Origin: Hormiphora californensis
Taxonomy: Eukaryota > Animalia > Ctenophora
NCBI GenBank assembly: GCA_020137815.1
Contig: CM035351.1
Location: 8,680,001-8,744,000 of the forward strand
Direction: 5' to 3'
DNA: 64,000 nt
Part shown: positions 15,001 through 24,000 of the stretch, in pieces
Position numbering within the stretch: position 1 is the stretch's first letter
Layout: the number at the start of each line of letters is the position of its first letter
The notes under the pieces: generated by a model
The model's database searches: none
The model's input: the letters and a program-made list of their open reading frames with translations, nothing else
Told to the model about the DNA's origin: nothing
Translations under genes and position numbers: made by a program

Positions 15001-18000
15001 GAACAAGTAAAGATTTGGTTTTTGTGAAATAGTTCAGAGATATTATTACCCTTCCTTCATCCTTGACATATCTTACCGGCTAGGTTCCCTCGGACGATGG
15101 TAGGTTGTGTTAGATTTTTGTAGTTCCCAACACCCCTCTGACCGCACTTGTTGGACCCCGAGACTCCATACCCTGTCGTATGCATCCAGGAACCAAGGTA
15201 TGGTCTACCCCACACGCCACGTCCTGGAGGAGGGGTTGTTATTGACAACAATAGTTGTGATTTTTCTGGGAAAAGAACGATATCATAGAGGTACTGATTT
15301 CGCAAAAGCGCCACTGGTAGTAACGGGTCTAAGATTTGAAGACAGACAGAAAGATACATACCCTAACAGCAACTGAAGATAACCCGTTGACTGGTTTAAA
15401 AGTGAAAGTTTCACTAGTTTTAGGGAGGTTGACTCCTTTCCTCCCGATCTTATTGATTCCTAGTTTGTTGGCTTCGTTGTCGCCCGTTGCCATCAACTTA
15501 CCTGATATTGATAACATTTGGAATTCAGAACATTTGACACCAAAAAGGGGTTGAAAATCGTTGTGATTCAAAATTAAATTTATTGACACCCCCGGTTGCT
15601 AACCTCCACTTGTAATAAGGAAGGAACATCTCTTGCCACACACAACCCGGGCAACATGTGCTCCTCTTATCTCGAGGAGTTGTGGCTCGTAGATTATATC
15701 CTCACCATCGTTACCAAGACAACCAAACTCACCGTTACCCCAACCAAACCTGGAGAATAAGAGGGGGGAGGGGTGTGGGGTGAGGTGTAAAGGTAGGGTA
15801 TCAAACAATATCTTCTCCCGTCCCCTACATCTCCGCTCCAAATCTTCTCTAATCTCTCTTCCAATAACAATCAGTAAAAGGGGGGGGGGGTGGTCATGTT
15901 AATTTCGTTAATGTTTTGTTAATTAACAAAGGACCCTTGATGAAACATTAACACGATTAACAAAATTAACAAAATTAACAAAAATCGCGTTTTAGGTGTT
16001 TTCAGTCGGTTTATAGCTATTTTACGTGTTTTAGGTGTGTTTAGGTATTTCTATCATAAACTCACTATCTCCCACGAGAGATATTTCATATCCCTAATAG
16101 TCAGGACCACTATTGGTGCGCGGTCGTGCCCACGGAAGGAGTGCTTGGATCATCTTGAAACCGGTTTTAAGTTAACTAATGCATATACAAAAGTGTCGGT
16201 AGCTATTTGGGTGATGTTCTGACAATCCAATCACGAGTTATGACCAAAAAACAGTCAAAAAAGACGTGGTGGTGGTGGTGGTACACCCGTTATAGCGTGC
16301 CAAACTCTGCCCCGTAGAGCAGAACGACATTGCAACCTCGTCATAGCGTCTGTCATCGTGTTGTGGTCAGTTAATATCATGGCATTCTTAATGTCAGTCA
16401 GTCATTACTCATTGTACTTGCCAGACACTTACGCAGTCCCCACGGTTAAAGGTCGCTTGCACTCTTCGCATCTCCGCCCCGTGAGGACATTGCAGTTATC
16501 TTGCGAATAAGCAAAATGACAAGTTAGGAGGCAAATTTTCAAGCTTGGGTGTTCGTGCAGGTAGGCCTGTTCGTTTGTTTGTTACGACGACGGTCCGTCG
16601 AGTGGACACTTCTCAAGCTTGGGTCTGGGGTAGTCTGTCTTTAGTAGCTCTAATTAAATTATTATTGAATGGCAAGGTTTTACTCCGGTATCATTATCAA
16701 TTGTACACAATGAATGAACAGACAATACGGACAGAACTTACAGCCTTTTGATTGATGTCAAGGGTACCATGTGTTGTCATATTGGATTGAGCGTTTGATG
16801 ATGAAATACGATTCCTATCATTCCGAATTACTCCGGGATTTTAAATTGTTGAGTCTTTATCCATCACTGCTATTTTTTGACTAAATTGACGTATGGCGCG
16901 AGATTTAGGCATTCGCTCTGCTGCTATGGGCCGTGCGTGCAAGTTCTATCCTGCAACCATGGTTCCAAAAAAGGATAATGGATATAAGACACGCCAGGTG
17001 TTGTACCACTTTTTAGGTTCACTCTGTGACTAATCGTGACGGCTTGTTGTTTAAATAAAGGAAGAACGAGGTGAACTGTTGAAGACCGGGAATTAGAAAA
17101 GCGCTACCTTATCCCGCGCTGCGTGTGGCACAGAACAGGGGCCTATTATAGGGAGCAGCAGCGTTTGCCAAGTGTTACACTACTTTGTATCAACGGGGCT
17201 AAATTCAAAGGACTAAAGGAGGTTTGTGGTGGGGTACACTTGGGAACTTGTAGTCAACGGACGCTCTTCTTGAAGGGTCCCATAGTCATAAAAATTCCCA
17301 TACTTTTTAATATGTCGTGGTGGCACGTTTGGTAGATCGGATCTGATCCTGAGAAACTGACGATCGAGATCAGATCACATATCATGTGATGAATACCACA
17401 ATATACCTTCTCTTCCCGATCAAAATGTGAGAGACGAGTAAAATAATAGGGAAAACAAAAAAGTTCACCACGCACGCCGTGAACCATTCAGGGACTCCAT
17501 GGTTCTTTTTACTACTTCGCAACCACGTGCGTCTTACTACTGCACCCTCCTGAGTACTCTGTAAGCTCCGTAGCATTGTGTGACTCCTACCGCGTTCTGT
17601 GAGGGTTCAGTAGATCAACAATAGCTTTACAAACACGTGTGGTTCTCAATTCCTAGTGCTCTAGTAACTGAACACATCAGCAGCATAGCAAGAGTGCTAG
17701 AGCTGGACGATGCAGTAGTAAAAATTGCACAGTTTTACACCTGCGCTCTGCTCTACCACTTTTATTCACTGTTCAATGTGGATCTACTCATGCTAATGAT
17801 CTTTATTGTAATCCTTTTTCAACAACCAAGACTAAGCTATATATATTCTCTCTTTAATCCACACAAGATCTAAACAAAGAGTTGTTTGCTCCAGATAGAA
17901 GAACACGTTCCCTCTGTGTTTGGATCAGGGACCGATAGAAGAACGCTTTTGAGGCCAAGAGGAACATCTGCTACCATCACGTGACCAGCTTACTAGCTCA

Positions 18001-21000: not shown

Positions 21001-24000
21001 CATTTGAAACCTATTGCATTTAAAGTTGTGTTTCATTTGTTGCAACAAAATCTCACGGATTATTAGGGAGGGGGTCACCAACAAAGCCCCGGATGGGGCT
21101 GTATTGGCGGGGAAAAGTCTTCTTACGCAGTTGGCTCTTCAGATGGGTACGAAACACTGAAACCCCGATAATATGAGAGTGATTTTGTGGAACTAAATTT
21201 GTTTGAATACGACGTCTTAGGAACCTGATCTGCCTGGCCGCGCCAGACCCCAATTTGACAGTGTGCTCAGATGGGGTCGGTGGCGCCAGACAGAACCTGA
21301 TTTACTGGGTAGTACCCAGTTATATAAGGCTTTTTTTACGACCTTACACAGCGATTTGCTCCATTGTATAATCTTTAATAAAAAATAGCCAAAATAAACC
21401 GCAATTGACGTCAAATGATCCTAATCCACATTTTTCAACCTTAAAAAATTACGAACACTCATGAATTCACCTTAATTCTAAAAAAATTTTTTTAAACACA
21501 CAAGGATTTGTAGCGAAGCAAATTTTAATGTTTGACCAAAAAATTTATTTTAGAATTTTTCTTCTTATTTTTTTATAACAAAAACGTTGTACATACATCA
21601 TCTTCTTTCGTCCAAATAGTCGATTACCGATGAAAAAATTTCATTTCAGATACTAAATTTAAATATTTGTAACTTGTGGAAAATCATCGATTTTGAGCCA
21701 AAAAACTTGTATGCCGGACCACCAAACTGTGCAATAAATAGTTGTACAATTGTATAAAATATAGAGCAACATTCAATAACTTCACTTCTTATTTTGTTAA
21801 TAATGTTAATAATGTTAAAGGTTGACAAGATACCTAAAACTTTTCGTTAATCGTATTTTTTCGATTTATCAGGAGTTTTTAAAGGGATACTGACATATTC
21901 AAATCGACCATCTCAAATTTTAATAAAACATTGCTAAATGACATCATCTGAGAGAATAAATACATTGTGTCGAAGTCCGAGCTCTCTACTCCCTCTACTT
22001 CTCAAGATATGGGGTCCCAAATATTAACACCCACTAATTGGTTTGGGTAAGAGGAGGAGACCAGCATTACAGATTACAGGTAAACACGAGCCTGTTTATA
22101 TGTCATTATCTCAGCTAATACACATGCGATTTTGACCGGGGTTTTTCTAAAAACTTTAAGACCACTTCTAGTTTCCGTTTTTGGTTTCCATTTGTCTCTA
22201 GACTTGTCATGAATAGATAGAACTATATCTAAGCAAGACGGTGATTTTTTTTGAAATGTATGCCTTCTTAGAACAATATTATCATGGTATTCAGTAACTA
22301 ATGTCAATAAAATTTGGCTGTACTTCCTCAATTTTACATCAAGATGTTAATATTTAATATTTATCCCACAGTCAATAACATAGTCAATAGTTATTAACTA
22401 TTCAGCCCTGAAATGAATATTGTATCCTAGGAGAGTATAAACTGAAAAATTTAGGCAACTAATTGGTATAAAAGGCAAAACCACTATACCCGACTAATTT
22501 TGATACGTTGAATCACATAAGCAACTTTGGCAAGCGCTCAGGGGTGGAGAAAGTGCCCTAATTGAGCATAATCGGGTCTAAGTGATCGTAACTGTAACTT
22601 ATCGCATGAAAATGCTATCAGTTCATGTGAGAGCACTATCCCCACTAATTTTGATACGCTGAATCACGTAAGCGGCGTTTCCAAGCCGTCAGAGGTGAAG
22701 AAAGTGTCCTAATTGAGCATTATTCAGTCTAATTGGCAATAATTGCATTTTTCAAATGGAAATGCTAAAAGATCGTGTGAGGGCACTTTACACATTAATT
22801 TTAATACGTTGAATCACTTGAGCAACTTTTACAAGTCCTCAGAGGTCGGCAAAGTGCTCTAATTGATCATAATTGGGTCTAATTGACAATTCACTCCAGT
22901 TCACCTCAAACTGCAAAGTTTACTTGTTTATTTACTGATTTATTTATGATTCTGATACATCATATGAAAATACTAAAAATTTTAAACATTTCTGACTTTC
23001 AGAAAAAAATCCGATCAAAATCGTGCATGTGAAAGTTGAGATATTGATAGATAAACATACTCATGTTTACATGTAATTTGCAATACGGCTCTCCCTCTAT
23101 ACCCAAACCAATTAAGAAGTGATAAAAGGTGGGGCCCTGTATCTTGAGAACGAGAGGGAGTAGAGAGTTCGCACTTCGACTCATCGTATTTTTATCTCCC
23201 AACCAGTTACCACACCCAGGATCGTTGAAAAAGTCAAACATTTTTGAATATGTCAGTATCCCTTTAAAGCATTTTTCAGATTTTTTGTCGTGTAGAAAAA
23301 TATTCGAAACAGGGCGCTTTCCAGCGCCGCGCCCCAATTCTTTATAACTTTGGCTGCTGAAAAAGTATATTCCAGGGTAGATTTCAGCCGCGCTATACTT
23401 TTTCAGCAGCCAAAGTTATAAAGAATTGGGGCGCGGCGCTGGAAAGCGCCCTGTTTCGAATATTTTTCTACACGACAAAAAAATCTCAAAAAATGCTTAA
23501 AACTCCAAATAAATCGAAAAAATACGATTAAAGAAAAGTTTTAGGTATCTTGTCAACCTTTAATAATGTTAATATTAACATTTTAAAAAATGTTCATGAA
23601 ACATTAACATTAACATGACCAACCCCCCGTAAAAAATTAAACTTACAGGCTTCCAGAATCTGTGGTTGCCATGACATGAGAATCTCCACATGACAGGCTA
23701 GTTAGTATGACACCACTGAAAAACGGCACAGGGACAGGAACCAGAGAGTTTTCAATATCTTCACCCACTCCCAGACACCCATCGTAATTGGAGCCAAAAG
23801 CAGCCTGGGAGAAAGGAAAGGATAAAATGGCTGTAAGTAGGGTTCGGTAAAATAGTTTCCATAGTTACCACGGTTACCATAGATACTGCTAACAACTGAC
23901 CATCTGAGAGTCCTCTAAGAGAACCAAAGTGAAATCATCACCAGCCGTAGCGTCTACAACCCCAGTGAGACTCTCAACACGCTTAGGACTCCGATAACTA

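Follow-up and report, generated by a model that had tools for sequence, protein, structure and literature searches.

A whole, expressed gene between the inverted ends of a Pack-TIR-type element in an intron of a NEK-family kinase gene of the ctenophore Hormiphora californensis

Animal DNA transposons with terminal inverted repeats (TIRs) may enclose DNA of other origin, and such Pack-TIRs are a known class; the capture of a whole gene by a TIR element has also been published, since in Drosophila Ssk-FB4 almost a whole gene was captured and then moved after capture (PMC8277862). The same source finds that most single-copy animal Pack-TIRs arose by filling in situ with short segments (median 224 bp); the parent is no more than 15 kb away for 57% of the gap-filled ones and far away for transposed ones, and 91 of 97 primate cases had an empty orthologous element. 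Pack-TIRs that hold a whole gene are rare in animals, and the origin of multi-exon genes that lie within introns is mostly inferred. One ctenophore genome contains 2,357 nested genes, with a transposable element (TE) on at least one side of 1,109 of them and on both sides of 176 (PMC8527503). In this study we focus on 64 kb of Hormiphora californensis DNA (the window, whose positions serve as coordinates), in which the evidence supports a single unit, bounded by TIRs and a target-site duplication (TSD), that encloses a whole, expressed gene within an intron of a kinase gene.

The element extends from 15880 to 23628 (7,749 bp), in agreement with the 7.75 kb of the sequence-only reading that preceded this analysis, and GTAAAA stands at both flanks (15874..15879 and 23629..23634). 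Its left end reads G11-TGGTCATGTTAAT from 15880, and the mirror image at the right stops at 23628. Without gaps the inverted ends are identical at 19 of 20 positions (15884-15903 and 23609-23628), and 29 of 33 columns match when one gap is allowed; the G-tailed TIRs of about 30 bp described earlier thus keep their G-run ends and shorten to 20 ungapped bp. The core 13-mer of the ends occurs once per strand in the 64 kb, and an inverted match of 20 bp with at most one mismatch was found in none of 200 first-order Markov sequences of the window's length and dinucleotide make-up. The two flanking 6-mers are exact at 6/6 positions, and two random 6-mers of the window would be identical with a probability of 0.00042 (about 1 in 2,400). 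The 6-bp duplication claimed earlier is therefore exact on both sides, and an 8-bp parse is also possible, agreeing at 7/8 positions (15872-15879 and 23627-23634) when two C are taken off the right end; we hold the two readings to be about equally good. Lengths of 2, 3, 5, 7 and 9 bp, the last with 7/9 agreement, fit less well than 6 or 8. Since the window has indel faults, among them two frameshifts in one host exon near 15110-15240, the lengths of the G- and C-runs are unsafe.

Subterminal repeats serve as transposase-binding sites, and both ends of the element are rich in such motifs. The multi-copy left arm (15880..16097, plus strand) consists of the G-run, the 20-bp TIR and seven TGTTAA/TTAACA motifs at 15897-15980, inside the left 220 bp. 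At the right the motifs lie in two pieces, three in an inner piece (21795..21818) that forms an inverted match to the left arm, and four in the terminal piece (23564..23628, minus strand), which also contains the 20-bp TIR and the C-run. Motif density reaches 32/kb in the left end and 25 and 58/kb in the right-end pieces, against 1.05/kb in the window. The two right pieces are separated by a nested Kolobok-type element that sits at a TTAA within the array and splits it, so this insertion postdates the outer element; as the array runs across the nested insertion, the right end is not a free-standing 65-bp miniature inverted-repeat transposable element (MITE). No second, inner pair of ends was found inside the element. 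A composite of two whole elements around the gene was also considered and rejected, as only one degenerate inner motif was seen, at 16364, and this is at chance level (such matches number 5 and 4 per strand in the window). As had been claimed, no open reading frame of transposase size occurs inside the element.

The host intron (15750..23646, minus strand, 7,897 bp) has GT..AG borders, and the exons on either side splice in frame. Subtraction of the element and of one GTAAAA copy leaves an intron of 142 bp on the minus strand, again with GT..AG borders, which bears out the empty-site size proposed earlier; the nine other placed host introns measure 96, 102, 183, 260, 265, 337, 468, 922 and 3,169 bp. 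We consider it very probable that the element entered the intron as one insertion. It could instead be that the gene came to the intron first, or by another route, and that the ends are remnants of separate short elements flanked by 6-mers that agree by chance. TE neighbours are indeed common at ctenophore nested genes (PMC8527503), a second nested frame (25888-26874), which occupies a different host intron, lacks a TIR/TSD pair, and no empty site was seen. Two half-elements would, however, have to face each other and show the 1-in-2,400 flank match, both inner ends would have to be lost, and the leftover would have to happen to be a normal-sized GT..AG intron. This account is improbable, and so are two independent MITEs, given that inner ends are lacking and that the motif array spans the nested insertion.

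The enclosed gene lies on the plus strand and has five exons: exon 1 (18254..18320) with the ATG and a hydrophobic, signal-like peptide, exon 2 (18439..18873) with domain 1, exon 3 (19102..19563) with a linker and domain 2, exon 4 (19798..20259) with a linker and domain 3, and exon 5 (20485..20957) with a linker, domain 4 and the stop codon (20955-57). These splice to an open frame of 632 aa with four 144-aa domains, and the gene is intact, as had been reported. Exons 2-5 are near-identical tandem copies: the domain repeats differ at 2-10 of 432 bases (98-99.5% identical), and the three introns between repeats are 1-2 substitutions plus short indels apart. Domains and introns being nearly identical, the array is recent or has been homogenised.

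For transcription and copy state, contigs of four of the 22 runs listed were compared with the window over 14400-19100: X1, X5, X7, which comes from a second species (organism B), and X14, an oligo-dT metatranscriptome (RNA). Seven further RNA runs, with 5-7% of the words, were not counted as evidence. Contigs of X14 match the gene with 0-3 differences and contain the GT..AG joint of exons 1 and 2, spliced junction letters behind 18873, and repeat-to-repeat junctions of two variants. In one X14 RNA contig, 24 letters of the ctenophore spliced leader, the sequence of which is published (PMC8527503), precede 18248. These contigs show that the gene itself, or a copy nearly identical to it, is transcribed, undergoes cis-splicing, and receives the leader by trans-splicing four bases ahead of its ATG. 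These data also bear on whether the four-repeat gene or the element ends could be assembly artefacts, a suspicion that the indel faults of the window would nourish (the two frameshifts, and a base at 15189 missing in X1 and X5). Against it, the repeats can be told apart by 2-10 of 432 bases and by indels in their introns, RNA contigs carry the repeat-to-repeat junctions of two variants, and the TSD and the intron arithmetic would not arise by error; we regard an artefact as very improbable.

Elsewhere in the window, a genomic copy of the spliced leader (a 26-letter match at 36821) stands directly before an intronless frame at 36804-37869 (plus strand), which is broken into overlapping open reading frames at 36846-37364 and 37234-37869. 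The frame likely goes back to retrocopying of a trans-spliced mRNA, or is the ORF1 of a retroelement.

The ends and the gene differ in their copy state. Contig depth is no copy number, and the figures that follow are a hint only. At 15940, the left arm is found in eight contigs of X1 with a summed depth of 2,576 (single flank contigs: 57-62), in one contig of X5 with a depth of 988 (versus 341), and in 17 contigs of X7 with a depth of 10,431 (versus 23-32). One X1 contig fits 15881-16086 and continues with 96 other letters past the left end, and thus represents another insertion site of the end family. The contig of the domain has a depth of 442 in X1 and about 2,000-2,300 in X5, close to what three to five repeats on two alleles would produce. 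Two contigs of organism B carry a homolog of the gene that is 86-88% identical, at a depth of 24-79. These depths hint that the end family is abundant and common to two species and that the gene is not amplified, at about one locus. Abundant ends with an unamplified gene count against an element that spreads the domain family, as had been proposed earlier; that proposal is not borne out, the arm being multi-copy, the gene low-copy, and the neighbouring nested frame devoid of such ends. When metagenome contigs were scanned for the end motif, 17 matches came up, none alike beyond the motif and none with a BLAST match to the window, and they were set aside as chance.

How the gene came to lie in the element can be read in two main ways. 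In the first, a non-autonomous cut-and-paste copy arrived in the short intron already loaded with the gene, to which we give about an even chance. A member of the end family would have captured the gene elsewhere, together with its upstream DNA, and template switching, while DNA was being repaired or replicated, is the likely means. A transposase supplied by another genomic locus would then have attached to the TGTTAA-rich ends and carried the unit to this site, lengthening the 142-bp intron and placing the gene on the strand opposite to the host. Tandem duplication may afterwards have raised the domain exon to four copies, and further repeats would have inserted into the two arms. One of these lies within the right subterminal array and has likely immobilised the unit. 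Since the leader joins four bases ahead of the ATG, the upstream DNA brought along would only have to supply a promoter at some point. Loaded arrival is favoured because the cargo is large and whole and has no close parent in the window.

In the second way, a short empty element was there first, and gap filling, following a break or an excision that was aborted, later copied the gene with its flanks into it; the gene would then be one of many insertions into the element and would never have transposed with these ends. Such filling is the published default for single-copy animal Pack-TIRs (PMC8277862). It is favoured here because the gene is low-copy while the arm is multi-copy, and because later insertions are many, with at least six in the element. 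On the other hand, the cargo, even without the exon duplications, would still measure about 2.5 kb, compared with the 224-bp median, and the window contains no nearby parent. We find this account possible, with somewhat less than an even chance.

Several points also weigh against the loaded arrival of the gene. No parent copy of the cargo was seen in the window or among the contig rows listed, nor did the contigs of the four runs show a further loaded copy with a different TSD. An empty site was not seen among these contigs either, which cover the left side of the element only, their support ending at 19100, before the 3' half. Finally, the homolog of organism B is known from two contigs without position.

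The DNA upstream of the gene, given earlier as about 2.3 kb, is only in part low-copy, about half of it being independent repeats. Three unrelated high-copy repeats, each with its own borders, make up about 1.1 kb of it. The first (16098..16267) has a very high copy number, being the bin of highest depth, with loose contig ends at both borders (before 16098, 10 contigs each in X5 and X7). The second (16289..16747) has approximate borders, with loose ends before 16289 and behind 16735, and the third (16997..17175) has loose ends before 16997, an approximate right border and a depth bin at 17069-17225. The remaining 1 kb or so (17226..18249, plus strand) falls in low depth bins and contains TATAAAA at 18021-27, a putative, TATA-like promoter element, and the trans-splice acceptor AG at 18248-49. 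Between 16266 and 17618, X1 and X5, at single-copy depth, have in common a joint from 17618 back to 16266 and a number of indels; the region upstream of the gene is structurally polymorphic.

On the 3' side, about 0.85 kb separates the stop codon from the inner right motif array. Behind that piece lies the nested Kolobok-type non-autonomous element (21819..23559), with AG..CT ends and TTAA at both flanks, and within it a second one (21883..23263), also with AG..CT ends and TTAA flanks, that carries three repeats of about 150 bp (22482-22890). A palindromic, MITE-like insert with perfect 89-bp arms occupies 23281..23482. Both nested elements show the TTAA TSD and the RR..YY termini described for Kolobok (PMC9587614), and a transposase is absent. 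This nested DNA, 1.7 kb of the 3' side, had gone unlisted in the sequence-only reading, whose account of the 3' part is corrected accordingly. Two long, near-perfect fold-backs lie elsewhere in the window (6353-7814 and 12389-13787), with 97% identical arms of 600-700 bp, and the second has TTAA flanks, as the Kolobok-type inserts have.

Ends of hAT elements are usually YA..TR, and Polintons/Mavericks have long TIRs starting with AG together with polymerase and integrase genes, a class that the ends and the open reading frames of the present element do not match. Both hAT6 and IS3EU make 6-bp TSDs, and IS3EU ends in TAYGG..CCRTA (PMC12730594); our element is like hAT6 and IS3EU in the 6-bp TSD, and differs from IS3EU in having a G-run and a C-run in place of these termini. 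Merlin elements have GG ends, TSDs of 8-9 bp and TIRs of 24-462 bp, and are present in three ctenophore genomes (PMC8101967). The element resembles them in its 5'-GG termini, and its TSD, if read as 8 bp, would come close to theirs with 7/8 positions in agreement; it differs in that its exact duplication is 6 bp, its ungapped TIR is 20 bp and no IS1595-type transposase is linked to it. Elements of the MULE/Foldback (FB4) type, with TSDs of 9-10 bp and TIRs of hundreds of bp (PMC8277862), were rejected, the TSD being 7/9 at best and the TIR 20-33 bp. The earlier statement that the ends fit no superfamily is therefore weakened: 6-bp TSDs are made by hAT6 and IS3EU, the 8-bp reading would fit Merlin, and the ends need not be a new superfamily. 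Irrespective of the superfamily, the unit has facing ends of one TIR element, an outer TSD, and non-TE DNA inside without a transposase, and is a Pack-TIR, a kind known in animals.

The predicted product of the gene is secreted and consists of four concanavalin/galectin-like β-sandwiches. The model of the domain is a β-sandwich with a pLDDT of 91.6; Foldseek gave 58 matches at E ≤0.001, led by galectins (PDB 9d62 and 1kjl; E 3.4e-5, TM 0.52, 12% identity), whereas Pfam returned no family for the domain and no galectin match at E up to 1. The galactoside-binding motif of galectins is HxNxR / WxxExR. The modelled domain is like the galectin carbohydrate-recognition domain in its concanavalin-like fold, and differs from it in that this motif is absent and in that a signal-like peptide and invariant cysteines are present. 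A search of 1.84 billion representative proteins returned 29 relatives; among the 20 that were looked up, 10 are Pleurobrachia bachei proteins, one of them named 'putative secretory peptide-43', and 10 are unnamed. By its sequence, the domain is assigned to a ctenophore family that includes this Pleurobrachia protein. These relatives and the spliced leader both assign the window to a ctenophore. A near-length protein search found a single relative (87 aa, 70%), and the ESM Atlas only bacterial lectin-like or hypothetical clusters with 113-137 of 256 features in common, which are leads only.

A distant paralog of the domain lies at 39123-40118 on the minus strand (profile E 2e-19). It is the only one within the window, has no nucleotide match to the gene, and was rejected as its parent, being too distant. 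Around it, inverted arms (86 bp at 93% and 52 bp at 98%) enclose about 8.8 kb at 36096-44949, which holds the paralog and two other frames. No TSD was found at the outer border of these arms, and the stretch may be another candidate of the Pack-like type, or a pair of copies from a single MITE family.

Eleven exons of the host gene splice without a stop, and those flanking the element join into its RCC1-repeat region (RCC1 repeat, E 3.5e-8); one kinase exon matches NEK2/NEK1/NEK7, and one splice joint (14429-14676) is present in the X14 RNA, in which no joint spanning the 7.9-kb intron appeared. On sequence grounds the host is classed as a NEK-family kinase with RCC1 repeats, of NEK8/9 architecture; the choice of NEK9 over NEK8 rests on a C-terminal coiled-coil-like tail seen by eye. 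Both frameshifts lie in the exon at 15077-15260 (minus strand), and they point to indel errors of the assembly rather than to a dead host gene, the base at 15189 being missing from X1 and X5. The second nested frame (25888-26874, plus strand) is a single exon of 328 aa in the 3,169-bp intron of the host, hydrophobic and GPCR-like by eye, with no Pfam match at the cut-off. No TIR/TSD pair surrounds it in the inverted-repeat comparison of the window, so that nesting here is not all by the route of the present element.

The locus provides base-level footprints of a DNA-based route by which a multi-exon gene could come to lie within an intron, and these concern one intact, transcribed gene. Loaded arrival, if true, would be one way in which genes come to lie inside other genes. 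Paired ends and a TSD around nested genes can serve as a search rule, which makes the question countable genome-wide, and if such a count agreed, the route would be a general one. We think it unlikely, however, that an unnamed G-run family with a true 6-bp TSD routinely drops whole genes into ctenophore introns, with trans-splicing keeping the cargo working by making transposed genes independent of their original 5' ends, and that this explains a good share of the intron-bearing nested genes as well as the spread of the large secreted β-sandwich family.

In the literature on ctenophore nested genes and transposons, taken without supplements, Repbase Reports and most subscription papers, no TIR/TSD-bounded nested gene was found, and the word 'ctenophor' is absent from the main text of the Pack-TIR paper (PMC8277862). 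With the nested genes described in ctenophores our locus shares a gene wholly within one intron and TEs on both sides, and its spliced leader agrees with the published sequence at every letter seen; the part of that report available gives flanking TEs as counts and describes no nested gene enclosed by one TIR pair and a TSD (PMC8527503). Compared with the known Pack-TIRs, the cargo here is far above the 224-bp median and is a complete, trans-spliced coding gene with its own stop; moreover, it lies antisense in a host intron between short TIRs, and no parent or second loaded copy was found. Pack-TIRs and Ssk-FB4 have in common with our element the non-TE DNA between non-autonomous TIR ends, the outer TSD and the absence of a transposase, and Ssk-FB4 likewise comprises a nearly complete gene, introns included, along with the DNA upstream of it.

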